This document shows positions 892-33,346 of a DNA stretch of 64,000 nucleotides, in pieces. This stretch comes from a virus. The position numbers and the translations under genes were made by a program. The stretch covers positions 1 to 64,000 of the IMG/VR virus record IMGVR_UViG_3300020057_000035; one strand, given 5' to 3'. A model generated the notes under the pieces. The model did no database searches. It was not told the origin of the DNA and saw only the letters and a list, made by a program, of their open reading frames with translations. Position 1 is the stretch's first letter, and every line of letters begins with the position of its first letter.

Positions 892-1142
892 TTCCTTGAT
901 GATGTCATCATAGCATGGGGATCGATTTGGGTCAAGCAAAGTGTTCGGCATTCGAACCAATATGTTCTGCTTTTTACTCTCGTCATTATTTTCTTGCGTG
1001 TTTATGCATAATACACTGTAAACATGCCCTGAATAGCGCCAGGAACAGAATCTAGTGGCATAGCGGCGAAAAAGCTAGTATAATAGCTCTTTGCTAAAAA
1101 CAGGCTCAGAATCGAATCCTACAGCATCTGAATGATCTGATG

Positions 1143-1225
1143 TTTCAAAATTCAGATTTTAAATTCTAAAATACAAATTTAATTTCTCAAATCTGAATCT
1201 TGAAACTTGAAACCTGAATTTAGGT
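1143..1225. repeat. AAAT/AAATT-rich tract (copy 1 of 5)
   Basis: Short-period A/T tracts; related tracts at 7192, 15484, 22945, 36591. Confidence 0.8.
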
Positions 1226-1437
1226 TTTAGTACTTAGAATCCTTGTTCCTCACCAAGAACCAAGAGATGGCGTTTCTTTTTCTTACTTTGGTGATACCAT
1301 TGTATCGCGATTTGGGATTTGGGTCAAGCGCCGCCCACGCTTGACATAACGCTACCAGCGAACTAACGGAGTTGCCACCCAAGCGCGTACTCTGTGATGC
1401 AATCATAGCATGGGAGTCGATTTGGGTCAACTCCCTG

Positions 1438-1638
1438 CTAGTCGTCCTGTCGATTGTCACGTGGCACGAATTCCCTGTATGCCTCTTCGGTGTCGTATTC
1501 AATCTGGGTGACGTTGAGAGCGTCCCTGTAGCGTTCTACCAGTTTCTCGCCGTTCATATGCATCTCGAAAATTTCGGTCACCTTGTACTCAGTGCCGTTG
1601 ACAGTTTCCAGTCGAGTACGCTTTACGCTGTCTTGCAA
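1438..1638 (-). CDS. Cassette micro-protein (MQDSVKRTRLE...), hypothetical
   Basis: TTG start with GAGGA RBS after promoter repeat. Confidence 0.6.
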   Translation of the reverse strand: MQDSVKRTRLETVNGTEYKVTEIFEMHMNGEKLVERYRDALNVTQIEYDTEEAYREFVPRDNRQDD

Positions 1639-1705
1639 TCTTTGTTCCTCAATTCCTTGTGATGCTATCATAGCATGGGGATCGATTTGGGTCAAGGGGA
1701 ATCGC

Positions 1706-1894
1706 CTACCACTTTTCACCTTGCCGTCGCATCCCAAAATGCAGATTTGGGAATCGAACGCACTGCAGCATTGCGATCCCGCCTCGGATTTGAAATTTCA
1801 GTCCACCTTTGCATTGGCCACAATATGGAAATTCCGTGTGCAGGCTTTGCATCAGGGCCTGATCCTCATCCAACATATGCATAATGCCAGCCAT
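1706..1894 (-). CDS. Cassette micro-protein with CxxC
   Basis: RBS GAGGGA + ATG after promoter repeat; YCGQC motif. Confidence 0.6.
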   Translation of the reverse strand: MAGIMHMLDEDQALMQSLHTEFPYCGQCKGGLKFQIRGGIAMLQCVRFPNLHFGMRRQGEKW

Positions 1895-1974
1895 CGGTTC
1901 CCTCACTTCCTTTGTGATGCTATCATAGCATGGGAGGCGATTTGTGTCAAACGCCGCTCTCGCGTGACATAAGG

Positions 1975-2148
1975 TTAGGTGCTGGCCTCTTCAAGGAATG
2001 TAGCTGGCGTGGGGTCGTTGCCATCATAGCAAAGTTGGCACTGGTATCCGGCGATCTGGTCGTCGTCGCGATACGTTAGTGGGTAACGCTCGCCAGCAAT
2101 GCGGCGCTCACACTTTAAGCAATGGGTTCTGAGGGATTCGGGGGTCAT
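1975..2148 (-). CDS. 57-aa zinc-ribbon micro-protein (MTPESLRTHCLKC...CQLC...), below ORF-track cutoff
   Basis: Translated by hand; two CxxC pairs; AAGGA RBS. Confidence 0.7.
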   Translation of the reverse strand: MTPESLRTHCLKCERRIAGERYPLTYRDDDQIAGYQCQLCYDGNDPTPATFLEEAST

Positions 2149-2160
2149 GGGTCACGTCCT

Positions 2161-2355
2161 TCACTTGCTGATGCAATCATAGCACGTCGGGGGATTTGGG
2201 TCAAGGGGAGTCGTAAACGCGGCTCGGTAGGCACGAGCCTCGCGATCCCAGTCGTCGTCGATTTCCTCTTCATCGTCACGCCAGTCATCCGCGCCGTTGT
2301 GTTGCGCCTTATAGATTTCTTCATGATCTGTGTGATTTGCCCATCCGTAAGCCAT
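2161..2355 (-). CDS. Acidic cassette micro-protein (MAYGWANH...DDEEEIDDDW)
   Basis: ORF track; ATG follows promoter repeat. Confidence 0.6.
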   Translation of the reverse strand: MAYGWANHTDHEEIYKAQHNGADDWRDDEEEIDDDWDREARAYRAAFTTPLDPNPPTCYDCISK

Positions 2356-2552
2356 GGCGGTTTCTCACTTCCAAAGTTTAACTCTGTGATGCAATCATAG
2401 CACGTCGGGGGATTTGGGTCAAGCGTCGTCGTCGGCGTGCTCTTACGATTTGGGTCAAACGCCGCTCTCGCGTGACATAAGGTTAGGGCATGGGTCACGT
2501 CCTTCACTTGCTGATGCAATCATAGCACGTCGGGGGATTTGTGTCAAGTCCC

Positions 2553-2753
2553 TTAGATGAGAGTCTTGGCGTAAATCACCATCTTGTCGAACATATCTTC
2601 AGGGAAGATCATAACACCAACGATTTCGTCGGCGTCCGTGTCGCGGAGGCTGACGTGGTAAGCTTTGGTGGCAAGGTTCTGGCGGATTTCCGCAGCCACG
2701 GAGTAAAGATCGGATTTCAGAACTGAGATGAGTTCGTAAACAGCATTGGGCAT
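2553..2753 (-). CDS. Cassette micro-protein, hypothetical
   Basis: ORF fills the space between two promoter repeats. Confidence 0.7.
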   Translation of the reverse strand: MPNAVYELISVLKSDLYSVAAEIRQNLATKAYHVSLRDTDADEIVGVMIFPEDMFDKMVIYAKTLI

Positions 2754-2816
2754 GGGTCACGTCCTTCACTTGCTGATGTAATCATAGCACGTCGGGGGAT
2801 TTGTGTCAACTCCCGC

Positions 2817-2978
2817 TCAATTCTGGAGGAAGCACTTTCGCACGATAGTGGCTTGCCAATACCCGCCCGCATCATAGGAAGGGGATTTTACCCATTCTAC
2901 TTCGAATTGTGCGGCGCAATCGTCGCAAAGCAGGGTAGGGGTCAGGGTGTTACATTCAAGGCAGAATCCGAATTCCAT
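2817..2978 (-). CDS. Zn-finger micro-protein family A, variant 1 (MEFGFCLECNTLTPTLLCDDC...)
   Basis: CxxC..CxxC; ATG at 2978 after repeat. Confidence 0.7.
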   Translation of the reverse strand: MEFGFCLECNTLTPTLLCDDCAAQFEVEWVKSPSYDAGGYWQATIVRKCFLQN

Positions 2979-3043
2979 TGCGTTTCTCACTTCCTGATGT
3001 AATCTTAGCACGTCGGGGGATTTGTGTCAACTCCCGCTCAATT

Positions 3044-3390
3044 CTAGGATGTGCTTGCCGGGCACATATATTCGTGATAATCTTGTCCACAATCGGGGCA
3101 CGATTCGTCGAATTGTGCGGCGCAATCGTCGCAAAGCAGGGTAGGGGTCAGGGTGTTACATTCAAGGCAGAATCCGAATTCCATTGCGTTTCTCACTTCC
3201 TGATGTAATCTTAGCACGTCGGGGGATTTGTGTCAACTCCCGCTCAATTCTAGGATGTGCTTGCCGGGCACATATATTCGTGATAATCTTGTCCACAATC
3301 GGGGCACGATTCGTCGAATTGTGCGGCGCAATCGTCGCAAAGCAGGGTAGGGGTCAGGGTGTTACATTCAAGGCAGAATCCGAATTCCAT
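3044..3390 (-). CDS. Family A variant 2, two identical tandem cassettes (3044-3184 and 3250-3390; 46 aa)
   Basis: Exact 206-bp tandem duplication; same 25-aa N-terminus as variant 1, different C-terminus. Confidence 0.7.
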
Positions 3391-3485
3391 TGCGTTTCTC
3401 ACTTCCTGATGTAATCTTAGCACGTCGGGGGATTTGTGTCAAGGGGAGTCGTCGAACATCCCCTCAGCACACTATGTGATTTGTG

Positions 3486-3683
3486 TCAACGAGACATCGC
3501 GAATTCGTGTTGCCGATCTCGCAATTCGTCAAGGTTGTCATTCTCTTCACACTGCTCACAATTGTCGCACTGCTCACAATCGCCGCAGAACTGACAATCG
3601 TGGTAATGTCCGCCTTGGGCTTCCCAGTCCTCTTCAGCGCGGAGTCGGTTGCCTTCGTCGCGGTCATCTTCGTTGTAGCTCAT
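3486..3683 (-). CDS. Acidic Cys-rich micro-protein (CxxC repeats); paralog of 11432-11665
   Basis: MSYNEDDRDEG...CQFCGDCEQCDNCEQC. Confidence 0.7.
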   Translation of the reverse strand: MSYNEDDRDEGNRLRAEEDWEAQGGHYHDCQFCGDCEQCDNCEQCEENDNLDELRDRQHEFAMSR

Positions 3684-3773
3684 GTGGTTCTCCTTCACTT
3701 CCTGATGTAATCTTAGCACGTCGGGGGATTTGTGTCAACTCGATGATTTGCCTACCACACTTTGGGATTTGTG

Positions 3774-4103
3774 TCAAGCGCCACTCTCGCTTGACCAATA
3801 TATAGCACGGGAGTCGATTTGTGTCAACTCCCGCTTTAGTGCCGACGCTATTTCGTACCAGTCTACCACGCGAAGCGCGCTTAGTAGTAGATCCGAATAG
3901 ATCCCACTAGAAAGGTGTGGCATACTTTCATAATGGTGTTGTTCTAGCCTGGAGGTCAGATCGTATACGCTATCGCACATTCGCGCAGTCTCTGACCAAT
4001 ACTCCTGGCTACCCCGGTCGTTGTCGATCCATAGTTTCGCCGCCCAAGTTTCGTAGTTTGTCCACCCATTGTACTTGTTGGCATTCGGGGATTCGGGGGT
4101 CAT
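3774..4103 (-). CDS. YNGWxNYETW-family phage protein; paralog of 27717-28001
   Basis: Near-identical paralog in the window; ATG at 4103. Confidence 0.75.
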   Translation of the reverse strand: MTPESPNANKYNGWTNYETWAAKLWIDNDRGSQEYWSETARMCDSVYDLTSRLEQHHYESMPHLSSGIYSDLLLSALRVVDWYEIASALKRELTQIDSRAIYWSSESGA

Positions 4104-4156
4104 TTGGGTCACGTCCTTCACTTGCTGATGTAATCTTAGCACGTCGGGGGATTTGT

Positions 4157-4234
4157 GTCAAGCGGCGGGCTGGCAATCGTTGCAGCCTGTGTCCTTGAAT
4201 AAACCGTAATAGAACAGCACCGCTTGACTTCTAC
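4157..4234 (-). ncRNA. Candidate small structured RNA family 1 (copies 4157-4234, 4652-4729, 5555-5632)
   Basis: Own promoter, no RBS or ORF; terminal stem GTCAAGCGG/CCGCTTGAC and internal hairpin GGCTG-CAACGATTG-CCAGCC. Confidence 0.6.
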
Positions 4235-4259
4235 AATGTAGCACGTCGGGGGATTTGTG

Positions 4260-4460
4260 TCAACTACCCTTGTGGTCGATGTCCCATGTTTTCGCAGCAT
4301 CCCGCAAATCCCGTGTGGTAAGCAATCCAGCCGCTACCATTTCCAATGCCGCAGCCATCGCCCAATGTCGAGCATCATCAGGATTATCCCGATTATCGAA
4401 TGCCAGATTTACGTTTCGCATCGTATGCGTGTGCTCGATAGGACGGTTAAGAACAAGCAT
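4260..4460 (-). CDS. Cassette micro-protein MLVLNRPIEH...; same protein at 12853-13053
   Basis: Duplicated cassette. Confidence 0.75.
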   Translation of the reverse strand: MLVLNRPIEHTHTMRNVNLAFDNRDNPDDARHWAMAAALEMVAAGLLTTRDLRDAAKTWDIDHKGS

Positions 4461-4780
4461 TTTGTTTCCCTCAATTCCTTCTGATGCTATCATAGCATCG
4501 GGGGCGATTTGTGTCAACTACCCTACCCTTGTCCAAGACCAGGGCATGGGTCACGTCCTTCACTTGCTGATGTAATCTTAGCACGTCGGGGGATTTGTGA
4601 AAATTGCTTTTCTCACTTCCTGATGTAATCTTAGCACGTCGGGGGATTTGTGTCAAGCGGCGGGCTGGCAATCGTTGCAGCCTGTGTCCTTGAATAAACC
4701 GTAATAGAACAGCACCGCTTGACTTCTACAATGTAGCACGTCGGGGGATTTGTGTCAAGCGCCGCTCTCGCTTGACATTA

Positions 4781-4966
4781 TTAGATACGAATCAATGCAT
4801 CCTGAGCGTAGTCCACGGCTTCATCAGACGTGGTAAACGTGCGGCTGAAGTAAAGATCCTCTCCCTTGAACGTGTCGGCCTGATAGATTCCATCAGGCCG
4901 TAGGTGAACGTTGACCGAGTAACCAGCGTCGTATTCGATAGTCATGTTCGTGAGTGTTCGTTTCAT
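4781..4966 (-). CDS. Cassette micro-protein MKRTLTNMTIEY...
   Basis: ATG after repeat; N-terminus reused at 20827-20994. Confidence 0.7.
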   Translation of the reverse strand: MKRTLTNMTIEYDAGYSVNVHLRPDGIYQADTFKGEDLYFSRTFTTSDEAVDYAQDALIRI

Positions 4967-5039
4967 GTCTTTCACTTCCTGATGTAATCTTAGCACGTCG
5001 GGGGATTTGTGTCAAGCGCCGCTCTCGCTTGACATAATG

Positions 5040-5222
5040 CTACCCGTGAAGAAGCGAATACTTTCGCAATCTTTCGCGAGATTCTTCCAATCGCTCGGAG
5101 GCGAGTTTCGCGCGAAATTCCGCAGCAAACAAGTCACGGCGAGCATCTTCGTCACGCTCTTCGTGAATTTTAATCTCTGCGCGTAGTTCACGCTCGCCAT
5201 TTTGTTCTGATACCGATTGCAT
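5040..5222 (-). CDS. Charged helical micro-protein family B (MQSVSEQ...); variants at 6014-6241 and 20827-20994
   Basis: GGGGAG RBS; paralogs in the window. Confidence 0.7.
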   Translation of the reverse strand: MQSVSEQNGERELRAEIKIHEERDEDARRDLFAAEFRAKLASERLEESRERLRKYSLLHG

Positions 5223-5314
5223 TTCTTGTCTCCCTCTCACTTCCTGATGTAATCTTAGCACGTCGGGGGATTTGTGTCAAATCATCGATTTGACTACCAC
5301 ACTTTGGGATTTGG

Positions 5315-5455
5315 GTCAAGGAAGGTCTGACTTCTATTTATACCAGACTGTACCGGCGTCGTCCCGCCACTCATTCCCTAACCCCAACGCTACTAAGCGG
5401 ATCGGGACTGTGTTAGTTCTGTGGCGATGTCCGTTGTAGCTTCCTTAACTTCTAC
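5315..5455 (-). ncRNA. Candidate structured RNA family 2 (also 20181-20260, 20297-20418, 21039-21101)
   Basis: Closing stem differs but pairs in every copy; shared GCTA...TAC(A/T)(G/A)TCTGG-loop-(T/C)CAGA(C/T)C core. Confidence 0.65.
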
Positions 5456-5685
5456 AATATAGCACGTCGGGGAATTTGTGTCAACTCCCGTTCTGTGCTG
5501 CCAAAATTGCTTTTCTCACTTCCTGATGTAATCTTAGCACGTCGGGGGATTTGTGTCAAGCGGCGGGCTGGCAATCGTTGCAGCCTGTGTCCTTGAATAA
5601 ACCGTAATAGAACAGCGCCGCTTGACTTCTACAATGTAGCACGTCGGGGGATTTGTGTCAAGCGCCGCTCTCGCTTGACATAATG

Positions 5686-5940
5686 TTAGATTAGGCTCAA
5701 GGCCACGAGCCACGATGGTTGATCATGCGAACACGTTCCATCGGGTTCGATGCCACTACAGCCGTCTATGGCGCGTGCCACGCCGTCCATCATCCACCTT
5801 TCTAGGGTAGCATAGGTCGGCTGTTTTCCCTTCACGTTGGCGATTATGGCATCAGGGTAAGACGCCTGATATCTTTCAAGCGTAACGCCATCCCTGAGAG
5901 TCTTAAGACCGCGAGCTTCGCTGTAAACCTGGAGTGCCAT
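5686..5940 (-). CDS. Phage hypothetical protein (…DGVARAIDGC…EPDGTCSH…PSWL)
   Basis: ATG 5940 after repeat. Confidence 0.75.
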   Translation of the reverse strand: MALQVYSEARGLKTLRDGVTLERYQASYPDAIIANVKGKQPTYATLERWMMDGVARAIDGCSGIEPDGTCSHDQPSWLVALSLI

Positions 5941-6013
5941 GTCTTTCACTTCCTGATGTAATCTTAGCACGTCGGGGGATTTGTGTCAAGCGCCGCTCTC
6001 GCTTGACATAATG

Positions 6014-6241
6014 CTACCCGTGAAGAAGCGAATACTTTCGCAATCTTTCGCGAGATTCTTCCAATCGCTCGGAGGCGAGTTTCGCGCGAAATTCCGCAGC
6101 AAACAAGTCACGGCGAGCATCTTCGTCACGCCTAACCTGCTTTGCGACGATTGCGTCGCACAATTCGACGAATCGCTCTTCATGAATTTTAATCTCTGCG
6201 CGTAGTTCACGCTCGCCATTTTGTTCTGATACCGATTGCAT
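6014..6241 (-). CDS. Family B variant with 15-aa in-frame insertion
   Basis: Identical to 5040-5222 apart from a 45-nt insert. Confidence 0.7.
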   Translation of the reverse strand: MQSVSEQNGERELRAEIKIHEERFVELCDAIVAKQVRRDEDARRDLFAAEFRAKLASERLEESRERLRKYSLLHG

Positions 6242-6336
6242 TTCTTGTCACTTCCTGATGTAATCTTAGCACGTCGGGGGATTTGTGTCAACTCGATGAT
6301 TTGACTACCACACTTTGGGATTTGTGTCAAGTTCAG

Positions 6337-6404
6337 TGTTTCACGTGAAACATTCGCCCGCGTCTAGCACACTTTGGGATTTGTGTCAAGTCGAACATTT
6401 GTTC
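6337..6404. promoter_or_regulatory. parS: parS (6337-6352) and LexA box (6393-6404)
   Basis: TGTTTCACGTGAAACA; CGAACATTTGTTCT. Confidence 0.8.
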
Positions 6405-6598
6405 TAAACGTTATGTCAAGTCGGGATTACTGTCAACTTCTCGCGCGCGCGTGAGTATATATGCGTATATAAAAATCATGGGAAAATTCATACGAATTTT
6501 GGCGCGGACGCTGGCGCGAGTAAAAAAAATACCCCGCGCGGCGGACCACGAAGGGTAAAATTTAAGTGTGCTTTATTTTTAAGTTTGAACACTTTATG

Positions 6599-6934
6599 CT
6601 AGTAGGCTAGACCAGCTTTGGTCAACACACTAGCATATCTGTTCAATACGTTACCAGCATAGAGAAGTTGATCGATTGTCATCTCACCACGTACCAAATA
6701 ATCGGAGTATTCCGCGTCAGGCCATGAATTCGTATCCACACCACCACACACGGGCGAGTGCATGTACTGCCATGCAGCCGGTAGATTCTCACCGTCGGGA
6801 TAGAGTACGTCGTGATAGATTACGTCGGCAATGGCGAACATGTGTGACATTGTAGTACCCCATGGATCATTGTCACCGTATTCCATTCGTACCATTGACA
6901 TTGCTTCTTTTTTCTCTGTGACTGTCAATACCAT
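6599..6934 (-). CDS. Hypothetical protein
   Basis: 111-aa ORF with AAGGA RBS downstream of a promoter. Confidence 0.75.
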   Translation of the reverse strand: MVLTVTEKKEAMSMVRMEYGDNDPWGTTMSHMFAIADVIYHDVLYPDGENLPAAWQYMHSPVCGGVDTNSWPDAEYSDYLVRGEMTIDQLLYAGNVLNRYASVLTKAGLAY

Positions 6935-7191
6935 TTTGTGTTCCTTGGTTTTTCTTGGATGTGCTTAGTATAGCATCGTTCGACATTTGAGTCAAGCAAA
7001 GGGGTATGTTATGTCTCTTCTTTGCCTTTTCTGCGTTGTTTTCTTGAGTGAAGCAAATAGCTAGCTACTACGGTAGCGTTTTTGATTGTTATACGCTTAA
7101 AGAATCGAATCCTACTGTGCCTGGGGGCATGTTTAGAGTGCTTAAAAATATGCTTAGAATCGAATCCTACAGTGTCTGAATGATCTGGATG

Positions 7192-7272
7192 TTTCAAAAT
7201 TCAAATTTTAAATTCTAAAACGCAAATTCAATTTCTCAAATCTGAATTCTAAAATTTGAAATTTGAATCTCT
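7192..7272. repeat. AAAT-rich tract (copy 2)
   Basis: Close homolog of 1143-1225. Confidence 0.8.
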
Positions 7273-7292
7273 AAATAGCAGACTAGCGATCC

Positions 7293-7760
7293 CTAAGGAC
7301 TCGCCCAGAATCGTCTACGTCGCCAGTCGCAATCTTTGCGGTGTTCATCGGAATGGAAAGTCGGTTCGTTTGTTTCCTTGCCACAATACATACAAGTTAC
7401 CCTGTTTTTTCCTTCACTTCCTGATGTTAATCTTAGCACGAGAGTCATCAATGAAAGGGTGGATGGTTTCGAATTCACGATACCATTCTGGGATTTTACC
7501 CATTCTACTTTGAATCTGGCGGCGCAATCGTCGCAAAGCAGGTTAGGAGTCAGGGTGTTACATTCAATGCAGAATCCGAATTCCATTGCTCTTCCTGATG
7601 TTAATCTTAGCACGAGAGTCATCAATGAAAGGGTGGATGGTTTCGAATTCACGATACCATTCTGGGATTTTACCCATTCTACTTTGAATCTGGCGGCGCA
7701 ATCGTCGCAAAGCAGGTTAGGAGTCAGGGTGTTACATTCAAGGCAGAATCCGAATTCCAT
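7293..7760 (-). CDS. Family A variant 3: internally duplicated chimera carrying a Fic-gene fragment and eroded promoters
   Basis: 174-bp tandem duplication; 44 nt copied from 7900-7943. Confidence 0.5.
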   Translation of the reverse strand: MEFGFCLECNTLTPNLLCDDCAARFKVEWVKSQNGIVNSKPSTLSLMTLVLRLTSGRAMEFGFCIECNTLTPNLLCDDCAARFKVEWVKSQNGIVNSKPSTLSLMTLVLRLTSGSEGKNRVTCMYCGKETNEPTFHSDEHRKDCDWRRRRFWASP

Positions 7761-7813
7761 TGCGTTTCTCACTTCCTGATGTAATCTTAGCACGAGAGTC
7801 GATTTGTGTCAAC

Positions 7814-8242
7814 CTATCCCCAAAGTTGCGGAGGAGTGACGGGATGATCAACATTGCCCGCTAGGATATTCCAAACTATGGAACCCGTACGTCCGTTGCC
7901 ATCAATGAAAGGGTGGATGGTTTCGAATTCACGATACCATTCTAGGGCGTCTACGTTGGCGTTGGCGAGACTTTCCATGGCGCGCGGGATATTGCTAGGA
8001 TCAACTCCCTTGTCCCCACTGGCGAACATTCTGGTAACTTTGGCATACTCCGCTGAAGACGGTTTGCCTAACACCAAACCAGCAATAAACTTGATAGTCT
8101 CGGTGTGAGTCACGGAAGGAAAACTCTTTGCATGATCCCATGCACGCAACATGTAAGGAACGAACTCTGGTCCATCCCCCTGTCGCTTAACTTCTTCTGA
8201 TGCCCAGATAACTTCGTGCAGGGTGAACATTTGTTCTCTCAT
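7814..8242 (-). CDS. Fic/Doc domain protein
   Basis: HPFIDGNGR Fic motif. Confidence 0.9.
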   Translation of the reverse strand: MREQMFTLHEVIWASEEVKRQGDGPEFVPYMLRAWDHAKSFPSVTHTETIKFIAGLVLGKPSSAEYAKVTRMFASGDKGVDPSNIPRAMESLANANVDALEWYREFETIHPFIDGNGRTGSIVWNILAGNVDHPVTPPQLWG

Positions 8243-8279
8243 TTCTGTAACTTAAGTATGGCATACTTAAGTATTTGTG

Positions 8280-8606
8280 TCAAGCGCCACACATTCCCTT
8301 CGTTGTTTCCATGTATTCTTTCACCGCTTCTTGCATTGCATCGTTTTTCATGTTCTTGGAATTCTCCAGAGTAATCTTCCCCCAGCATAAACTTGTCAGC
8401 ATTTTGGCAACTTCTTTTGCCGCCCATACCGTGGCATATCTTCCCGGGAGTTTTAAGCCAGTTACTTCGTGAGTGATTATCCACTTGCCGGATTCCTTTC
8501 CGGTAGTGTATTCTCGGTGAATAAAGAATTGATTAATCCTGTATCCACTGACTTTTACTTGGGCGGTTCCGTTGCTAGTTCCTGTAAGAATCTTTGCGGT
8601 TTGCAT
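8280..8606 (-). CDS. Hypothetical protein (MQTAKILTG...)
   Basis: GAGGA RBS; N-terminus shared with 8608-8811. Confidence 0.65.
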   Translation of the reverse strand: MQTAKILTGTSNGTAQVKVSGYRINQFFIHREYTTGKESGKWIITHEVTGLKLPGRYATVWAAKEVAKMLTSLCWGKITLENSKNMKNDAMQEAVKEYMETTKGMCGA

Positions 8607-8812
8607 CTTAGAAATTCCTCTGGATATGCGTATCTATCAATCTTCCAGCTCCAACTGATGTGGCTGACTCATCTTCCCATCCACAAGTATCGCAACGTAC
8701 CAAGAAGGAGCGCCTCGACCACCGGACAGGACTACCGGCCTCGTGGATTTTGTTCTTACCCTTTCGGGCGGTTCCGTTGCTAGTTCCTGTGAGAATCTTT
8801 GCGGTTTGCATC

Positions 8813-9067
8813 TTATTTTGCATCAAGGAATTCTCGAATTGCCTTGTAGGTGTGAGGAATGCTAAAGTACTTGCAAGCATTCTTTACAGCTTTTCCGTCC
8901 TTATTGGCCGTTCCATTATCAAGGGAAAGCGTCATGCTGCGTGCGAGCGATGCTGGCGTAGTGATAGTGGCTGGATACATGTATTCGGGATCTTCTCGAA
9001 AGAGGCGAGTGTACTCTTCTTTCAAGTATTCGTAGAATGAATCTAGGTTTATTTGTGTGGCTTCCAT
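8813..9067 (-). CDS. Hypothetical protein (MEATQINL...)
   Basis: Hairpin+GGAG module upstream. Confidence 0.7.
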   Translation of the reverse strand: MEATQINLDSFYEYLKEEYTRLFREDPEYMYPATITTPASLARSMTLSLDNGTANKDGKAVKNACKYFSIPHTYKAIREFLDAK

Positions 9068-9123
9068 TAGTTTTCTCCGCATCGCCCCGCGTGTCCGGGG
9101 TCGATAGATGAACCCTACCAGCA

Positions 9124-12807: not shown

Positions 12808-12852
12808 TTCTTTCACTTCCTGATGTAATCTTAGCACGTCGGGGGATTTGTG

Positions 12853-25113: not shown

Positions 25114-25383
25114 TCTTCGTCCTCTTCTTTTTCATTATAGTACTCTTGACACAATGTGTCAAGGTGTAATGTGGCAGTTTTTAGTCTGACTGCCAACAGA
25201 TCGAGACGGTCATCAGTCGTCTCTTGCTCAATTGAATTCAGGTAGAGCTTCCAATAGGGACGGTCATCACGCGCCCCACACAAAGGAGGAGTAGGTTCTT
25301 AACGATACCTACAAACGCTTAGCAGCCACGACACTGCTTCTCAATTATATTACTTACTCTTCCGCTGGGCCGTGCAGATTGTG

Positions 25384-26611
25384 TCATTGTGCGCGCCCCC
25401 ATGCTGGACCAGGGAGCAGTTCCTCGATAGGGCCGAAGTCCTTACCGAGACCGCTGGTCGTCCAGCCGAAGGAAAGGGCAATGCCTAGGGGTTTGGTGAG
25501 GGCCGCGCGGTCGAACAGCGCGAGAACATCCTTATGACTATGGGTGTCGTTGTATCTGCTGACCGCGCCGACATCACCGATCATTAAGCGCCACCCATCG
25601 CCCGGAGGCAGAGCAGAGCGAAGAGTGTCTACAGCAGCTTCAATAGCATGGCGTGATCCATCGACTGAACCGGCCAAGCCAACCATTCGACTGGTACCGA
25701 CCGCCATAGAGACAGCCTGAACTGTACAGAGCATGCGTGGCGATTGGGGTGCCTTCCCATCCCACCAATCTTCGCGATTCTCGATAAGTTGCCGCGCGGC
25801 TTTCAGGATCTCGATTGTGTCATTCATCCTCCGCACACTCTGTCTGCATAATGGCGCGGTCGAACAGCGCGAGAACATCCTCATGACTATGGGTATCGTT
25901 GTACGTGGCGAGACCGTGCCGACGCAATGTTGGTGGAAGCGCATTGAGAAGTTCGCCATAACATTCTTCCCACGCCGTGGGATAGTCAGCGCGTTTGAGT
26001 TCATGAAAATCCTTCGCCAAGGCCTGCATCACGCAAAACGTCCCGGCAGGCTGTGCCCACCAGTCCCTCCTGCCATCCCACCAGTCCTCGCGCTTCTCGA
26101 TAAGTTGCCGCGCGGCCTTCAGGATCTCGATTGTGTCATTCATTCGTTTACCTCTGTCGCCGCAATGGCGCGGTCGAATAGGGGCGAGAACGTCCTCATG
26201 GCTATGGGTGTTCCTACACTACTTATCAAGCCAGTCATATATCCCCCTCGATGCTGCATATTCACGCCTTTGATCGTCAAGTGTATTTTGCCATTCATCC
26301 TCCGCACACTCTGTCGCCGCAATGGCGCGGTCGAACAGCGCGAGAACATCCTTATGACTATGGGTGTCGTTGTATCTGCTGACCGCGCCGACATCGTCGG
26401 TCATTTTCGCGCCCGGAGGCAGGGCGGCAAACAGAGCGTCCAAAGTAAACCAACCGGCCAAGCCACCCCTTGACTGATACTGAATGCGGGCCGTGGAGAC
26501 AGCCTGCACCGCACAGAGCCGCTGTTCTACGCCCCCGCTGCCATCCCACCAATCCTCGCGCTTCTCGATAAGTTGCCGCGCGGCTTTCAGGATCTCGATT
26601 GTGTCATTCAT
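25384..26611 (-). CDS. Three tandem paralogs (25384-25827, 25820-26143, 26219-26611), DUF6197-like
   Basis: MNDTIEILKAARQLIE...WW...C..QA...YNDTHSH.DVLALFDRA in each. Confidence 0.7.
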
Positions 26612-26635
26612 TTTCTTTCTTTCTCCTAGTAAAGT

Positions 26636-26711
26636 TGGTGCCCGTGGTCAGATTCGAACTGACACTACAATCGTTTTAAGCGATTTCACTCTGCCGTTGG
26701 TGTACACGGGC
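26636..26711 (-). tRNA. tRNA with UAA anticodon (Leu), short variable loop
   Basis: Cloverleaf GCCCGTG/CACGGGC, anticodon arm AATCG-CTTAAAA-CGATT, TTCGAAT T-loop, 3' CCA. Confidence 0.85.
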
Positions 26712-27121
26712 AACAAGTTTTCATTCATCTGTTTCTTCAAGTAGTATACGTACTATCTTCTCGAACAGACCAACTGTTATAGTCGAAATTGTCAAACGTG
26801 GAACCATATGTTCGATCTACTTCTTCTCCCTCGCCCTCACACACTAGACGCCGAGCGTCATCCTCATATTTCTTCATTTTTTAATTGCCTCACTTGGCGG
26901 CGCAAGCCTTTGTGATTACAAACAATACACCTGCGATAATCATTGTCAGTGTGCCTCTTTGCACAGGCATTATGGTTGAATTTTCATTCAACCAATCTTT
27001 AAGTCGTGTGTCTGATTGATTCTGTCGATTTCGATTGTAGCTCTGTCGTTTGTTATTCACTAGGGGTATTATATCTCACTTTCGCCTTTGTGTCAAGTGG
27101 TTGCGAAAAAAATAAATTAAA

Positions 27122-27733
27122 TCAAGCTGTAATGCGGATTTTGTCAACAATTTTATCAATATCTAAGTATGCACTTTTTGCATCTTCGTATCGAAAATAC
27201 TCGTTACAAACGTACATAGCGTCCACCACCCGTGTAAATAGTTCGTCGTCGCCCAGTGCTTCTAGTGCGCTGTTTGTCTCTTCGTTATCGCCCAGATGTT
27301 CACGTAGTGCTTGTCTCACATCAGATGCGATACAATAATCCCAACACACCTTTTGTATTTCTTTTTCAAGCTCGGATAGATCCTCTGCATCAATCAAAGG
27401 ATAATCTTTTAAGGCAAGGAAGACTTCACGCATTTCTTCCGTAACACAATCTGCACGAATAACTACGCCCTCGCTGTCGTAGCTACCAATTACATGCATT
27501 ACACCTTCAATTTCACCAAATTCTCGAAGAAATACACGACAGTTGGAGCGTGTAACATGGTCACCACTATAATCTCCCCATATCAGATTATGCGGAATAT
27601 AGAATCGCGGTTCACTGCTAGGCGTCCACGATTCTACGCTACTGTAGGAATCCATATCCCAAAAATAGTGCCATCCACTAAATACGTACAGTTCACCTAG
27701 AGGATCGTTCACGCGATCATGCCATGCGATCAT
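27122..27733 (-). CDS. Acidic hypothetical protein
   Basis: 203-aa ORF. Confidence 0.75.
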   Translation of the reverse strand: MIAWHDRVNDPLGELYVFSGWHYFWDMDSYSSVESWTPSSEPRFYIPHNLIWGDYSGDHVTRSNCRVFLREFGEIEGVMHVIGSYDSEGVVIRADCVTEEMREVFLALKDYPLIDAEDLSELEKEIQKVCWDYCIASDVRQALREHLGDNEETNSALEALGDDELFTRVVDAMYVCNEYFRYEDAKSAYLDIDKIVDKIRITA

Positions 27734-28001
27734 ATTGTGACACTCCGAATTTCAGTGCCAACGCTATCTGATACCAGTCTACCACGCGAAGCGCACTGTT
27801 CAGTAGATCCGAATAGATCCCGTTAGGAAGATCGGGCATACTCTCTGAGTGATGCCGTTCTAGCTTGTGCGTCAGATCGTGTACGTTGTCACACATTCGC
27901 GCTGTCTCTGCCCAATACTCCTGGCTACCTTGGTCGTTGTCGATCCACAATTTCGCCGCCCAAGTTTCGTAGTTCGCCCAACCGTTGTATTTACCGTCCA
28001 T
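27717..28001 (-). CDS. YNGWxNYETW-family protein
   Basis: Paralog of 3774-4103. Confidence 0.75.
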   Translation of the reverse strand: MDGKYNGWANYETWAAKLWIDNDQGSQEYWAETARMCDNVHDLTHKLERHHSESMPDLPNGIYSDLLNSALRVVDWYQIALALKFGVSQYDRMA

Positions 28002-28523
28002 ATCTACGGATCATCCTTTCGTCCACTCTGTCGGCGCGTTCGCCATTATCTAACGCTAGTTCTATAGCGTATCTCTCCTCAGAACTAAGCGCCGAACATT
28101 CGACACCTAGCCATGCGGAACGATGAAGCTTTACCCTATACCCTTCGTTCTGTTCTTGGAATACGCTAGGGTAAACTCCCGTCAACGTTTCAATCGCGCG
28201 CGCCAAGCGTAGACTGTATCGGCGATCATGCCATGCGATCATATTGTGACACTCCGATCCATCAATTCAGGGCGGAATGGCATGCTGATGCGCGAAGTGT
28301 GTTCTATGCAATACAGGAATATATTGCCATATGCGGATATGTAAGCAGATACAGCGGGCAGTGTGCATGCGCCGAATCGACAATCAGTCTGTTGTAGATA
28401 GTACGCGGTTAAGCGTGCGTAAGTTTGTTCGGATCGTTCATCAGTCGTTTGTTTCGTGATCGTGATCATTGTTTCTACTCTTCCCCTAGTGCGTTTAGTT
28501 TTCCTTTTTTTGCATTGTGTCAA

Positions 28524-28778
28524 ATAGTGGGACGAATATAGGGCGCGGATTTTATCCCGTCTTTATAAAAATTCCCTATACTCAATGCATGACGTGATCA
28601 GCGTCTACACTTAAAGCCGTCGCTTCATCCCATAATTAAATTAGATTCCGATACTGTTCGATTTCTTTTGATCTATATGGATACAACGTACAAGGTTCTG
28701 ATTTGACCAGAACGCTCAGGGACGGATACTCTATAGACTAAGTGTGTGTCACCAGTGGAATATCTAACTTAACTTCCT
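28524..28778 (-). ncRNA. Candidate structured ncRNA cassette
   Basis: Promoter 28780-28809; AGTTAAGTTAGAT/ATCTAATTTAATT and TGGGATGA/TCGTCCCA stems; no ORF in the track. Confidence 0.45.
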
Positions 28779-28938
28779 GTATCTTACCACCTAAGGTGGT
28801 TTGTGTCAAGCAGGAATTTCCAAAAAAGCTGAACCTTCCGTCTCAACATAATCAAAAAAATCTTCGTTGACTTTTAACTTCATTTTCTTTCCTTTGTGTT
28901 CTTATCTTACTACCTAAGGTGGTTTGTGTCAAGTACCT

Positions 28939-29157
28939 TTAGAAAATTAACACCTCTTTCTTTTCCACAAAAGGAAACCAATGGGTAATGTGCTTACACC
29001 TATCATTTCTGTAGACAAAATCAGGACAACTACACTTAGCTACACTGATTGGATCAGTGTAGATAAAGTAATTATTAGTCTCTCCTATAATTTCCCACAC
29101 ATTATTCCTAATTTTACGAAGTGGGAATCTACCTTCTGTCCAATCATCAGGTTTCAT
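28939..29157 (-). CDS. SWIM zinc-finger protein
   Basis: CSCPDFVYR...CKHI. Confidence 0.8.
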   Translation of the reverse strand: MKPDDWTEGRFPLRKIRNNVWEIIGETNNYFIYTDPISVAKCSCPDFVYRNDRCKHITHWFPFVEKKEVLIF

Positions 29158-29516
29158 TTGCTTTTCCTTTTTGCCGCTTCTTTATAGTCTAGGAGATCTG
29201 ATTCTAAAGATTGTCTGCTTATCCCCGCAAGAGTATTGTCGATAAGCTTCTTTAATCCAAACCTTGTATTTCAAAGTTCTTGTCCTATCTCTTCGTTATA
29301 TGTTTCGAATGCTCTATCTAATAGGTTTTGAAGCCTGAGTGTAAGATATGAGACGGTATTGGCGTTTGGTTGATTATGTGAAGCACGAACGAATCCGATA
29401 ACTTCACTAATGATTTGAATGTTCTGTTTGTATTGTTCTAGGTTAGTCATATCTATAGTCTACCTCCTTTTGCGTTTTGTGTCAAGAGGTATACCAATAT
29501 ATCTTTTGCCTCTCTC

Positions 29517-30050
29517 TCATCGTCCTACATAGCCATAAGCAATACCTTCGGCAGACGATTCCCTCAAAGCACGCCGGAGACGCTTCCGCCAAATTGATGC
29601 TAATTCACTATGAGTAATATCAAGAAATAAACTCAAGGAATACCACGGATTCTTCTCATAATCAACATGAAGGTTATATTTCTTGATCATATCTATAGCC
29701 GTTTTGTTTAATCTAATGTAATCTTCTTTTTCTGCTACTCTGATAATACTCCAACTCATTCTTTTTCTATCCCTTTCTTCACTTCTTTTCTTTATTGCCT
29801 CGGCAGTTCCGTGTGGTGTACCATCTAATCTATCATTATTACAAATATAATGTGTTAGTCGTAGATTGGTATATGCGTTTGAGCCACCACTACTTCTAGC
29901 AAGAATGTGATCTAGTGTTGCTCCCATTTTATGCATTTTTCCGGCTATACACTTAATAGATGGATCAATTGGATTCATACATATCTGACAAACCCAACCA
30001 AATTCTTTAATTAACCTAATCTTAATTTTTTTTCTTTGTCTACTATTTAT
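29517..30050 (-). CDS. HNH endonuclease (frame open upstream of the called ATG and including CQIC; start uncertain)
   Basis: TLDHILARSSGGSN...NLRLTHYICN. Confidence 0.8.
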   Translation of the reverse strand: MNSRQRKKIKIRLIKEFGWVCQICMNPIDPSIKCIAGKMHKMGATLDHILARSSGGSNAYTNLRLTHYICNNDRLDGTPHGTAEAIKKRSEERDRKRMSWSIIRVAEKEDYIRLNKTAIDMIKKYNLHVDYEKNPWYSLSLFLDITHSELASIWRKRLRRALRESSAEGIAYGYVGR

Positions 30051-30525
30051 TTTTATACCCTATTGTCATGTATACCTGATTGGCGCGTTTCACGTCTACA
30101 TGTAGATTAGCTTGAGTTAGTCTTTGTGTCAACAGTGTGTCACTTTTTATTTCGTGTCTGAGGAACTGTAGGAACACGTTTTCAGCCTCTTTTAGAAAAA
30201 AGTAGTAGTTAGGTAGCTCTTCGTCCCTCAATGCCACCTGTGGGCGTTCCTACGGCTTCTCAGAGGTATTGTAGGTATAGTCCGCTAGGGATGTTAGACC
30301 GCTCTGAAGACTTTCTTGTTTCTTATGCCCAAAGTAAAGACAAGGTAAAGATTTTGCTCTTTTCAAAAGTTTTGTCCACAGATCTGGCTCAACCTCTGTA
30401 TTATATAGGATACCAGTTTTATTCCTTGTGTTGTTTATTTCGTCAATTAAACTTTAGGTAGAAAATTAGAAGATGATACTTGATTTTGAGTAACCAAGCC
30501 CGCTCGACTTGGTTCTCGTTTTCGA

Positions 30526-31536
30526 CTACTTTACACCTGCCATCAGGTGCTTAAACGCCTTTGACCTGAGATCAAAGCCGGGACCGTCCAGATTATACAA
30601 AGCACGACGGGTTTGTGAATCTGCGTTCTTGCTGTTTGTATTCATTCCCTTGACTTGCATATCGTGAGACACCCACTGAGTGACGGCGTTGTACCATCCA
30701 TAGGCAGTATCTCGTTCCACAGTCTCGGATTTCTGAAAGACCGACCACAAGCGCAGACGTTCCTCTTGCGCAGAACGAATAACACGGTCTGTAATATCTT
30801 TACCAGTAGGAATCGGAATAAGAAAATCAATCATGCTTTCAAATTCTTCTGGGTTTTTCCTAGTATTGGCAAGAATCTCAAAACGTTTTGCTTGTTCGAT
30901 CATCCTTTTGCTCTGAAGATTGAGTGCCTTAATCATTTCTGAAACTCGCGCTTCTACAGTGCTAAGGTGCTTGATGGATGCTTTCACTGTGCGTTTGCTT
31001 TCACCCAAGGATACACTCATAGTATTCTGGCAAACAACCCGAGTAGAAACATCCGCAAGATGTACACCAGTCTTACCGTCGTGACCGACAATAAGCAAGA
31101 CATAGGGGCGGATAGGGTCAACACCACCGACTAGAATATCCTCGTCCAAGCGAACGAGTACCCAAGTTTTGCCATCATTGAGTACACCAATAGTCTCAAT
31201 AGCCAATGGTCGATCTTTAAGTGCTTCTGTAAGTGCTAAGATGCCAGTCATATTCTGATAGATAGTATAGGCACCTTTTACTTGCCCGAAAACTTTACCA
31301 TCACTAACTCGTCTAATGTTGTAGATGTTTGGCACCTCACGATATTCATCATTAAAGAGATGATAGGTTGGTGTCTTCTCTACTTCAAAGTCAGCTCCCG
31401 CTTTGTGTGCTAATTCTTCGGTATTATATGTGTCAATCTCTGACATAGCGATACCAAGCCCATGCCACGGGGTACCAGTTGCTTCACGATAAGCCATCGC
31501 TGCTATACCGTCTTGTCTAATTTCTAGATTGTGCAT
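30526..31536 (-). CDS. DUF932/DUF945 family phage protein
   Basis: MAY...PWHGLG, HDG, RVVCQNT, YNAVT motifs. Confidence 0.85.
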   Translation of the reverse strand: MHNLEIRQDGIAAMAYREATGTPWHGLGIAMSEIDTYNTEELAHKAGADFEVEKTPTYHLFNDEYREVPNIYNIRRVSDGKVFGQVKGAYTIYQNMTGILALTEALKDRPLAIETIGVLNDGKTWVLVRLDEDILVGGVDPIRPYVLLIVGHDGKTGVHLADVSTRVVCQNTMSVSLGESKRTVKASIKHLSTVEARVSEMIKALNLQSKRMIEQAKRFEILANTRKNPEEFESMIDFLIPIPTGKDITDRVIRSAQEERLRLWSVFQKSETVERDTAYGWYNAVTQWVSHDMQVKGMNTNSKNADSQTRRALYNLDGPGFDLRSKAFKHLMAGVK

Positions 31537-31648
31537 TTTGCCTTCCCTTTGACTCTGTGAGTCTTTGATAAATTAAGAGTACATCAGCTTTGTCTTTGTG
31601 TCAAGTCGTCTCTTGACTTTTCTTTTATGTGAGGTTATAATTATAAGT

Positions 31649-32215
31649 ATGAAACTATTAAAACATTGTTTATATTGCGAAAAAGAAACATTTAATCCAA
31701 AATATTGCTCACGATCTTGTACAGCTAAAGTAAATGGTAAATCTAAATTATCTATAGAAGAGCGATTCTGGTCTAAAGTAAATAAAACCAATACTTGTTG
31801 GATTTGGACAGGGGCTTCTGATAAAGGGTACGGTAGACTTAAGATAAATGGTAAATCCATAGGTGCACATAGGATTTCTTATGAGTTACATAAAGGTATA
31901 ATTCCAGAAGGATTACAAATAGATCATTTATGTAGAAATAGAATATGTGTAAACTATGATCATTTGGAGGCAGTAACTCTCAGAGAAAATATTCAAAGAG
32001 GATTATCAGGATCTAATATGCGAAATAAAACACATTGCTCACAGGGACATCCCTATGTCGGAAACAATCTATATATACAACATGTTAGTTTTGGTAATGG
32101 AATACGTAGAAAGTGTCGTACATGTATATCAATACAGAAAAAAGAATACTATTATGTGAAAAGTAAGGGGATTCCGCCATCCCATAACACACTAGGCAGT
32201 GAGAGCGTAGAGTGA
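31649..32215 (+). CDS. HNH homing endonuclease
   Basis: RFWSKV...CWIWTG...AHRISY...DHLCRNRICVN.DHL; own TTGACT-17-TATAAT promoter at 31613-31641. Confidence 0.9.
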   Translation: MKLLKHCLYCEKETFNPKYCSRSCTAKVNGKSKLSIEERFWSKVNKTNTCWIWTGASDKGYGRLKINGKSIGAHRISYELHKGIIPEGLQIDHLCRNRICVNYDHLEAVTLRENIQRGLSGSNMRNKTHCSQGHPYVGNNLYIQHVSFGNGIRRKCRTCISIQKKEYYYVKSKGIPPSHNTLGSESVE

Positions 32216-33157
32216 GAGATTACGCCACTCGGGATTGCCACTAGCTCTGATTTTAGCCGTGATTAACAAAGAGCGAAAATTCAATGTAGTAATCACCTCT
32301 TGTTTTTGCTTAAGGAAACTTAAAGCATCACGCTTAATTTCCAGAGACAGTTCAGGCAAGACACTTTCCAGCACCGTTTCCATTCGTTCAATTTTCTCTG
32401 AATTTGACATAGAGAGATCAACAGTAATTGCCCGAGTACGAATTGGTGGTGGAATTGAGTATTGCGGCTTGTTACTGATGAATACAATACCACCAGTAAA
32501 GTTGAAACTAGAAGCATATCCTACTGCTGGCCTACCCGATACCCAAGAAACAGTTCTAGTCTCATAGCTATCAAGCGCGGCCTTAAGAAGATTGATTGTA
32601 GTTTGATTTTCCAACACGCTATCACAGTCATCAAATACAATAATCTTATCGTAATTGTCGTGCATAGTCTCATACAAACCTAGTGGAGTAGTGAATCCAC
32701 TAATAGGTAAGTATCCTGATTGATCACCCTCAATCATGTTCGATTCAAGACCGATAGATCGAAGCGTATCAAAGACCGTGTATGTCTTACCCAGACCGGA
32801 TTCACCAGTAACAATCAAACTAGGCAGTTTGCGTTCTGCTACCATAGTAGTGAATTCTTCCAAGTACTTGAAGCGTTCATTGATAGTGAAGCTAGGGGTG
32901 ATAGTCTTGGGTGCATACGTCTGAGTGACTGTACGAGACGTGTCAGAGCGAGTGCCTTTGGCCATTGAAGCATAGCCCTCGCCTACTTCTACAGCGGTCA
33001 CGCCCATCTTGAAAGCCTTGACGTTCTCGCCATTTTCTATGCGCCGAATGATTTGCTGCTTACCATTCTCACCCGTGCCCGTGCCAAGAGTGATGCCAGA
33101 ATAAGTACATACCCACTTTTGTCTTGCTATGTCGAATCTGAGCGATGCAGTTTTCAC
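32192..33157 (-). CDS. AAA+ ATPase
   Basis: Walker A GESGLGKT, Walker B IVFDD. Confidence 0.85.
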   Translation of the reverse strand: MKTASLRFDIARQKWVCTYSGITLGTGTGENGKQQIIRRIENGENVKAFKMGVTAVEVGEGYASMAKGTRSDTSRTVTQTYAPKTITPSFTINERFKYLEEFTTMVAERKLPSLIVTGESGLGKTYTVFDTLRSIGLESNMIEGDQSGYLPISGFTTPLGLYETMHDNYDKIIVFDDCDSVLENQTTINLLKAALDSYETRTVSWVSGRPAVGYASSFNFTGGIVFISNKPQYSIPPPIRTRAITVDLSMSNSEKIERMETVLESVLPELSLEIKRDALSFLKQKQEVITTLNFRSLLITAKIRASGNPEWRNLSLYALTA

Positions 33158-33346
33158 GATGCCTTACCTTTGCGTTCCCGCCGTCATCAAGCTTATGCTC
33201 GTGCGGCTGATGTACTTAAATATAGCTTAAGTCTGGGTTTGGGTCAAGCCACTGGAATAGATGTATCCTATCTCAGCTATAGACCAGATGCTACTTGACA
33301 CAAAAGCTGTTAGGAGGTAAGATACAGTAAGTTGAAAGGATACCTA

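Follow-up and report, generated by a model that had tools for sequence, protein, structure and literature searches.

The DNA analyzed here, hereafter called the window, comprises the first 64 kb of a linear viral contig of 111,848 bp from IMG/VR (IMGVR_UViG_3300020057_000035), whose completeness is put at ~73% by CheckV. The left half of the window carries an array of small genes and short non-coding segments on the minus strand, in which copies of the same promoter-leader unit recur, all in the same orientation. In its consensus form, this unit reads TTGACACAAATC-N8-TGCTAAGAT, followed by the leader TACATCAGGAAGTGA and an ATG, with the most conserved positions lying in TTGACACAAATC, in TGCTAnGAT and in the leader motif tACATCAg.AAG. 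It combines a TTGACA box, a 17-bp spacer and a TGn-extended -10 element (TGn-TAAGAT/TATGAT), an architecture close to the sigma-70-type consensus, and in most copies a Shine-Dalgarno leader (tACATCAgGAAGTGA..) places an ATG within ~25 nt. The array and its borders can be described as follows:

670-33247, minus strand: the whole leftward, putatively early array, with 78-84 promoter-leader units, ~90 small open reading frames (ORFs) and several non-coding cassettes.
3002-3030, minus strand: an example of the canonical unit, TTGACACAAATCCCCCGACGTGCTAAGAT, which is present in 15 exact copies and is followed here by the leader TACATCAGGAAGTGAGAAACGCA-ATG.
33219-33323, no strand: the divergence point, with the last leftward unit at 33219-33247 and the first rightward unit at 33295-33323.
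33295-35684, plus strand: rightward units of the same promoter class, predicted to drive a small ORF and the genes for tRNA-Ile(tat), tRNA-Met, tRNA-Arg(tct) and tRNA-Lys(ttt).

The units were counted in three ways. A search with a 29-mer allowing ≤2 mismatches returned 63 minus-strand matches, compared with 0.02 expected; a looser regular expression identified 69 minus-strand units between positions 907 and 33247, four plus-strand units (33295-35684) and a single one in the other 76 kb; and a 29-nt position matrix detected 78-84 minus-strand units up to 34 kb, with zero plus-strand units inside the array and zero units beyond 36 kb on the 112-kb contig. An earlier note on this DNA had proposed ~80-90 co-oriented strong promoters, each with a leader and a ribosome-binding site. 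The matrix count agrees with this estimate, and the near-consensus promoters and their common leader indeed precede small ORFan genes; the pattern that the note spelled out, with its spacing miswritten, has zero literal matches. It had also described the repeats as near-identical at 2-14 kb and diverging toward 33 kb, which is roughly correct: exact canonical copies lie at 3.0-6.3 kb and 10.9-12.9 kb, but another one stands isolated at 21.0 kb.

Other sigma-70-type promoters on the contig are co-oriented with their genes and ~6x sparser. Because the CAAAT extension of the -35 box is absent from them, the array units represent a distinct promoter class. A search of IMG/VR for the exact promoter and leader gave no match, and a looser promoter pattern retrieved ~80 loci, mostly fragments of jumbo phages of ~350 kb. 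Many of these fragments (L045, L089, L069, L083, L035 and others) contain two TTGACACAAAT..TGCTAnnAT promoters spaced exactly 281-283 bp apart, which adjoin the 5' side of a homolog (24-36% identity) of the 321-aa NrdC.10-like gene of the window. The class defined by the extended -35 box is thus common to unrelated phages, perhaps through a common host group. As relatives of the phage studied here, the jumbo-phage fragments were rejected: their UvsX match reaches only 23% identity, the search for a matching polymerase came up empty, and none of the small cassettes occurs in both.

At 0.9-6.3 kb and 10.6-14.6 kb, the units are spaced 75-425 bp apart, and nearly each of them leads into either a single ORF of 46-110 aa with a Shine-Dalgarno sequence or a short segment without an ORF. 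To the right of these single-gene zones, units stand at the head of small operons. The boundary between cassettes is tight, with 35 of the 47 promoter-proximal ORFs stopping ≤60 nt from, or within, the next unit and the TGA inside TTGACA serving as the stop codon for seven of them, in agreement with the earlier description of one ORF or segment per unit that ends at or inside its successor.

Whole cassettes recur at distant positions, and every pair reported earlier is present at 99-100% identity. In addition to a 182-nt repeat at 4105, 4600 and 5503 (99-100% identity) and a stretch at 13199-13301 that recurs at 14194-14296 (100% identity), the duplicated and mosaic elements include:

4239-4480, minus strand: a 66-aa ORFan cassette with a copy at 12832-13073 (99% identity), flanked by different promoters and units at each site.
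2902-3442, minus strand: a whole-cassette tandem with 2.6 copies of a 206-nt repeat, 100% identical, carrying zinc-ribbon ORFs at 2817-2978, 3044-3184 and 3250-3390.
7293-7760, minus strand: a fused 155-aa ORF made up of 2.7 copies of the zinc-ribbon cassette of this tandem.
20827-20994, minus strand: a chimeric ORF whose first 52 nt match the cassette at 4781-4966 and whose remainder matches the cassette at 5040-5222.

The high-identity duplicates extend from base 0 of one -35 box to +43..+56 of the next unit. In the fused ORF, the 174-nt repeat holds a remnant of a -10 element and leader that is now coding, and the N-terminus MEFGFCLECNTLTP is common to four ORFs with differing tails. Older paralogs within the array are 69-83% identical. 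Moreover, the spacer and leader types assort, with all four combinations occurring (S1/L1, S1/L2, S1b/L1 and S1b/L2), which places exchanges around the -10 element, where the mini-circle crossovers of promoter-early stem-loop (PeSL) cassettes have been mapped (PMC2839356). PeSLs were described from T4-type phages, where they lie in hyperplastic regions (Arbiol et al., 2010, PMC2839356; Comeau et al., 2014, PMC4122927).

Cassettes of the array can also be traced in other metagenomes. Exact copies of cassette proteins were found on 3-9 other contigs of ≤32 kb (JGI, Logan and ENA); proteins of the cassettes at 0.67-12.8 kb recur on JGI contigs with lengths of ≤21.7 kb, and further ones were seen on contigs spanning 22-32 kb. 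For 4 of the ~19 cassettes examined, variants exist whose C-terminal tails change exactly at the junction between the ORF and the next unit. One of these proteins (P0076) joins the ORF at 13918-14139 to the tail AILAAQNGS*, which in the window is encoded at 5484-5510 in front of another unit and hence reflects an alternative adjacency. Another (P0088) reads through the next promoter unit, with a tail compatible with the loss of the -35 box of that unit, and the pairs P0090/91 and P0096/97 end at different junctions. In variants P0070 and P0079, the differences are found mainly in the first 8-19 residues, which adjoin the leader. Duplicate end-points, chimeric ORFs, assorting spacer and leader types and junction variants in other metagenomes all speak for homologous recombination at the units, as proposed in the earlier note.

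At the DNA level, the array could be compared with L100, a 6.5-kb contig from another JGI metagenome that matches window positions 27209-34297 with ~98% identity and retains the gene order. The single structural difference begins inside the -35 box of the L100 promoter and involves a homing endonuclease gene together with the replacement of the promoter and of the DUF932 gene's 5' end:

31598-32215, plus strand: HNH_3 homing endonuclease gene, absent from L100.

Substitutions relative to L100 are clustered in patches, with an overall ratio of nonsynonymous to synonymous polymorphism (pN/pS) of 0.35. At 27717-28242, they accumulate in a pair of small neighboring genes (pS 0.12-0.16), whereas the genes around this pair are identical, a pattern that suggests localized exchange.

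A second level of organization is provided by four occurrences of a composite element with constant geometry, in which a TATATATG box lies ~100 nt, and an AT-rich satellite 810-880 nt, from the palindrome GTTTCACGTGAAAC. Each palindrome is positioned just 5' of the promoter that opens the next block, so that the array can be divided into four blocks of 6-11 kb:

250-1220, minus strand: composite element E1, with two copies of the palindrome GTTTCACGTGAAAC (251 and 299), the TATATATG box at 398, a terminator at 481-512, the last promoter and ORF of the block and an AT-rich satellite at 1095-1219.
481-6330, minus strand: block I, with ~30 units at a pitch of ~200 bp, each with one small ORF or non-coding segment; the terminator of E1 lies at its end.
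6337-7268, minus strand: composite element E2, with the palindrome at 6338, the TATATATG box at 6456, a terminator at 6532-6553 and a satellite at 7143-7268 that is 87% identical to that of E1.
6532-14607, minus strand: block II, with operons at 7.8-11.9 kb and single-gene cassettes at 10.6-14.6 kb; the terminator of E2 lies at its end.
14655-15553, minus strand: composite element E3, a weaker copy in which the geometry is kept.
14655-22075, minus strand: block III, with more diverged units.
22092-23012, minus strand: composite element E4, the weakest copy, again with the same geometry.
22092-33247, minus strand: block IV, with sparse, diverged units heading operons; its genes encode the NrdC.10-like protein of 321 aa, a DUF932 protein, two DUF6197 proteins, a DUF7249 protein, an HNH protein and tRNA-Leu(taa) (26636-26711).

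An origin of the four blocks by ancient duplication from each other was rejected, since paralogs are few and most ORFs unique. The AT-rich satellites, which carry AAATTCAGATTT and TTGAAAC motifs and lie within GC-rich array sequence (1095-1219, 7143-7268, 15481-15553 and 22969-23022), are possible sites of curved DNA, nucleoid-protein binding or transcriptional pausing.

Cassettes have no insulation of their own. A significant hairpin (z < -2 in the span from -45 to +29) is present in 7 of 69 units, with a mean z-score of -0.5, and terminator-like sites are not enriched (21 vs. 16.3 expected). Within the first 17 kb, we found two good minus-strand intrinsic terminators only, at 481-512 and 6532-6553, both of which are part of composite elements. 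The transcripts of one block should hence be 3'-coterminal.

The array also differs from the rest of the genome in its codon usage. The G+C content at third codon positions (GC3) of promoter-proximal ORFs amounts to 0.55, 0.50, 0.45 and 0.38 in blocks I-IV, compared with 0.20 in core genes. The phage tRNAs read UUA, AUA, AGA, AAA, CAA and GUA. In core genes, TTA, ATA and AGA account for 50%, 53% and 74%, respectively, of all codons in their synonymous sets, as opposed to 2-11%, 9-22% and 5-26% in array genes, so that codons for which the phage brings its own tRNAs are avoided in the array. Four of the tRNA genes lie directly 3' of rightward units of the same promoter class, and tRNA-Leu(taa) is located inside block IV. 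At 33873-33940, directly 5' of tRNA-Ile(tat) and tRNA-Met, there are three tandem TTGACAC -35 boxes followed by TATGATACAAT. Differences in codon usage between early and late genes are known in principle in phages (PMC5683454). The simplest reading of the pattern observed here would be that immediate-early genes are written for host tRNAs alone, whereas the phage tRNAs produced alongside them may serve the AT-rich genes expressed later.

The gene content of the array is largely unfamiliar, as most of its 72 ORFs analyzed lack a match to any Pfam, PHROG or PADLOC family. The families that do occur are Fic/DOC, DUF7249 (twice), DUF6197 (twice), DUF7007, DUF4241, DUF932 and HNH, and the NrdC.10-like protein is widespread in T4-like and jumbo phages. 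The two DUF6197 paralogs at 25384-26611 and a fragment at 11432-11602 have near-identical stretches of 75-90 nt in common; a plus-strand ORF opposite the paralogs (25733-26473) has no family match and is probably a by-product of GC-rich sequence. Besides these protein-coding cassettes, several units have TACATT or TATATT as their -10 element, and their predicted transcripts begin with GTAGAAGTCAAG and contain no ORF. Among the cassettes of both kinds, the following deserve mention:

7817-8242, minus strand: a Fic/DOC-domain protein of 142 aa, a candidate host-modifying effector.
4162-4234, minus strand: a 73-nt non-coding cassette with a TACATT -10 element, beginning with GTAGAAGTCAAG, with identical copies at 4657-4729 and 5560-5632.
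13196-13314, minus strand: a strongly folding non-coding cassette of 119 nt (z -4.5), with a second copy at 14196-14310.

The structured RNAs proposed earlier are thus only partly borne out. Non-coding cassettes exist, but among them only those at 13196-13314 and 20302-20420 (z -2.3) fold significantly better than shuffled sequences, and the thrice-repeated 73-nt unit does not (z -0.25). An Rfam search at gathering and E-value thresholds recovered only tRNAs and one chance-level match, with no match to a non-coding cassette. The position of the array genes, their small size and an analogy with phage SPO1 suggest a putative role in host takeover or anti-defense, which may also be hinted at by the Fic domain, DUF932 and the acidic nature of several small proteins, such as those of the ORFs at 2161-2355 and 3486-3683.

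The body of the contig is AT-rich (GC 0.29-0.35) and encodes a class II-type ribonucleotide reductase, the large terminase, ThyX, an RNA ligase and a family-A DNA polymerase, together with a UvsX-like recombinase, a DnaB-like helicase, an exonuclease, TnpB and eight tRNAs. Two of these proteins, the ribonucleotide reductase (1982 aa, 47904-53852) and the large terminase (835 aa, 54966-57473), contain inteins with LAGLIDADG or HNH endonuclease domains, and the tnpB gene (OrfB_IS605 / Cas12f-like TNB domain) lies within the phage sequence at 62325-63473. A megablast comparison of array and core with cultured phages returned zero DNA-level matches, and the best cultured match of the DNA polymerase is 31% identical. 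A search for Phage_capsid across the contig found nothing, as did queries of IMG/VR for related loci with the DUF932 protein, the 321-aa protein and UvsX. The array adjoins the left end of the contig, for which IMG/VR records no end repeats and where assembly may have stopped in a minisatellite. This end opens with ~18 copies of a GGCGAGAG/GGGTGAG minisatellite (1-142), followed by CCGTTAT/ATAACGG repeats at 150-240 and a perfect 48-bp direct repeat (231-333, 2.1 copies) that bears the palindrome GTTTCACGTGAAAC; it could correspond to a genome end, an origin, a packaging site or a mere assembly stop. The idea that the contig is a chimera of a GC-rich array and an AT-rich phage was rejected, because L100 independently spans 27.2-34.3 kb, including the divergence point; it is also contradicted by the continuation of the promoter class on the plus strand and by paralogous stretches that connect the array with positions 64 and 102 kb.

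We consider it likely that the array represents the early region of a large, virulent, uncultured phage without close cultured relatives, combining host-type promoters, recombination at the repeated units and codons that are independent of phage tRNAs. In this model, the host RNA polymerase with its housekeeping sigma factor would initiate at the ~80 near-consensus promoters and transcribe leftward, and, because individual cassettes lack a terminator, transcripts would read through successive cassettes to the single terminator at the end of each block. The densely repeated promoter-leader unit of 45-70 bp would at the same time provide a substrate for ordinary homologous recombination, for which the phage's UvsX-like recombinase and exonuclease would be available and in which no dedicated integrase would take part. 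Unequal exchange between units could then duplicate, delete, fuse and re-order single-gene cassettes, in the manner known for the PeSL repeats of T4-type phages. Finally, the GC-richer codons would make translation of the array genes independent of the phage tRNAs, which, although driven by the same promoter class, may serve the AT-rich middle and late genes.

Several points weigh against this model. Promoter function and early timing of the units are both predicted from sequence. The only relative compared as DNA, L100, covers the least repetitive block; there, the order of genes is unchanged, and the one indel stems from a homing endonuclease rather than from an exchange between units. Evidence for the junction variants comes solely from protein tails on short contigs, and it is partly to be expected that duplicates end at unit boundaries, given that any homology will extend into a shared repeat. 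For the cassettes with 99-100% identity (2.7-6.4 and 12.8-14.4 kb), order and copy number rest on one assembly, and an assembly error in the most repetitive part (2.7-6.4 kb) is the main risk to the duplications. The host-like nature of the codons in the array is likewise putative.

Among the alternatives, the one that may hold most readily concerns the codons. The GC-richness of the array could possibly reflect the recent capture of foreign cassettes, with the youngest at the left and an age-dependent decay toward AT, rather than selection for independence from phage tRNAs. GC3 falls stepwise across blocks I-IV toward the value of the core genes, canonical units accompany GC-rich cassettes, even in the isolated case at 21.0 kb, and DUF932, DUF7007 and DUF6197 are common outside phages. 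However, pairs of paralogs in blocks I and IV with 69-76% amino acid identity keep their GC3 wherever they are located (0.56 vs. 0.58 and 0.48 vs. 0.47), which argues against a simple decay with age, and the DUF6197 genes of block IV have a GC3 of 0.60-0.63. The age gradient suggested in the earlier note is likewise not supported: GC3 declines from the left end inward, yet paralogs of the innermost block, although diverged, equal their left-end copies in GC-richness. In addition, no donor came to light; among 1.84 billion cluster representatives, the duplicated 66-aa cassette is without a homolog, and the best relatives of the DUF7007 protein are ≤48% identical.

It is less plausible, although compatible with recombination, that the units are kept for regulation only, as a strong promoter plus a site at which the spacer, leader or CAAAT extension binds a host or phage factor, with recombination being incidental and of no consequence for the evolution of the region. 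In line with such a role, TTGACACAAAT is conserved even in the most diverged and in the rightward units, the same extended -35 box is found upstream of the NrdC.10-like genes in unrelated jumbo-phage contigs and the CAAAT extension is missing from the other sigma-70-type promoters of the contig. By contrast, the spacer (CCCCCGACG) and leader fall into discrete sub-families that are common to neighboring or duplicated cassettes, indicating identity by descent, and the chimeric ORFs, unit-bounded duplicates and alternative junctions in other metagenomes require recombination.

We regard it as rather improbable that the promoter array is real but that, in its most repetitive parts, both the duplications and the order of cassettes are artefacts of an assembler that threaded strain variants or looped through identical repeats of 50-180 bp. 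The 15 exact 29-mers, the identical promoter-leader stretches of 46-70 bp and the repeats of 182-242 nt with 99-100% identity do exceed common k-mer sizes, both contig ends lie within repeats, and allelic variants of several cassettes occur in other samples, so the population is mixed. On the other hand, JGI contigs of ≤21.7 kb and other contigs of 22-32 kb carry exact cassette proteins, unique sequence is found on both sides of the duplicates, and the fused ORF at 7293-7760 together with the paralogs at 69-83% identity shows that duplication has occurred in the lineage regardless of the assembly. Highly improbable, finally, is a true integron-like system in which cassettes would be inserted and excised at the repeat by a site-specific recombinase of the host or of the 27% of the genome absent from the contig, a scenario for which the single-gene cassette layout, the recurrence of whole cassettes and the incompleteness of the contig could be adduced, as opposed to the lack of matches to tyrosine or serine recombinases (Phage_integrase, PF00589; Resolvase, PF00239) on the 112-kb, ~73% complete contig in a search that included positive controls, the absence of a consistent attC-like imperfect palindrome or hairpin at cassette ends, where ORFs abut or overlap the next promoter, the presence of promoters in the cassettes and crossovers at points as varied as the -35 box, the region between spacer and leader and the inside of ORFs.

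Going further, one might speculate that the array is a currently active, integrase-free and homology-driven counterpart of an integron, which, by way of its portable promoter-leader unit, captures GC-richer foreign genes, amplifies useful ones in an accordion-like manner, with the 100%-identical tandem and dispersed copies as its traces, fuses them into multi-domain proteins and swaps them within a mixed population, with a codon dialect that permits translation before phage tRNAs are made; at present, we consider this combination unlikely. If the duplications are real and polymorphic, the array would offer a natural system for observing the birth, amplification and fusion of small effector genes, and its ~70 unexplored, predicted early proteins form a candidate pool for host-takeover and anti-defense functions. 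In the literature, PeSL-type cassettes have been described for T4-type phages only, whereas the same logic is seen here in an unrelated, uncultured phage and on the scale of ~80 units, or nearly one third of the contig. Distinctive features are the block-end terminators in place of hairpins in each cassette, the non-coding cassettes and a codon split that ranks among the sharpest computed within a genome. Our understanding of integrons or phage early regions as such is left unchanged by the array.

Integrons are composed of the integrase gene intI, the attI site, the cassette promoter Pc and promoterless cassettes bounded by attC sites. The array resembles them as a co-oriented row of mostly single-gene cassettes without assigned function, some of which recur, but it lacks an integrase as well as attC and attI, provides each cassette with its own promoter and has breakpoints that do not coincide at one site. 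The term integron-like, as used in the earlier note, should therefore be taken as a loose analogy only. A further parallel is the host-takeover module of phage SPO1, which, according to a later account, comprises 26 small early genes in a 12.4-kb terminal region (PMC6873191, citing Stewart et al., 1998). Both are clusters of small early genes (predicted as such here) with strong promoters for the housekeeping sigma factor and ribosome-binding sites, and their products are presumed to shut down or redirect host processes. However, in the SPO1 module as portrayed there, operons are headed by about a dozen promoters and a near-identical promoter-leader repeat is missing, and no proteins shared between it and the array were detected.

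For phage T4, the tRNAs are known to suit the A/U-ending codons of non-early genes. The codon partition described here follows the same principle, with phage tRNAs reading the A/U-ending codons that dominate in non-early genes and putative early genes using others, but the split is unusually large (GC3 0.55 vs. 0.20) and confined to one contiguous array.

The closest counterpart of the array is provided by the PeSLs, and the comparison drawn in the earlier note is apt. In both cases, a repeated strong sigma-70-type early promoter (predicted in the array) with a Shine-Dalgarno sequence at the 3' end of the unit flanks ORFan genes in a plastic region and offers, as is probable for the array too, patches of homology for the gain, loss and shuffling of cassettes without a dedicated recombinase. 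PeSL crossovers were mapped between the -10 element and the ATG (PMC2839356), and the authors of these studies themselves likened PeSLs to integrons (PMC2839356; PMC4122927). Unlike PeSLs, the units of the array have no general stem-loop or terminator, leaving termination to the four composite elements at the block ends; the array is far larger and contiguous (~80 units in 33 kb), includes non-coding cassettes and is written in a separate codon dialect; and its carrier, with a family-A polymerase that is only distantly related to cultured phages, is not T4-type. Collectively, these comparisons identify the locus as a very large PeSL-like array of predicted early-gene cassettes rather than an integron, distinguished by the lack of a stem-loop, its terminator-bounded blocks and a codon dialect of its own.

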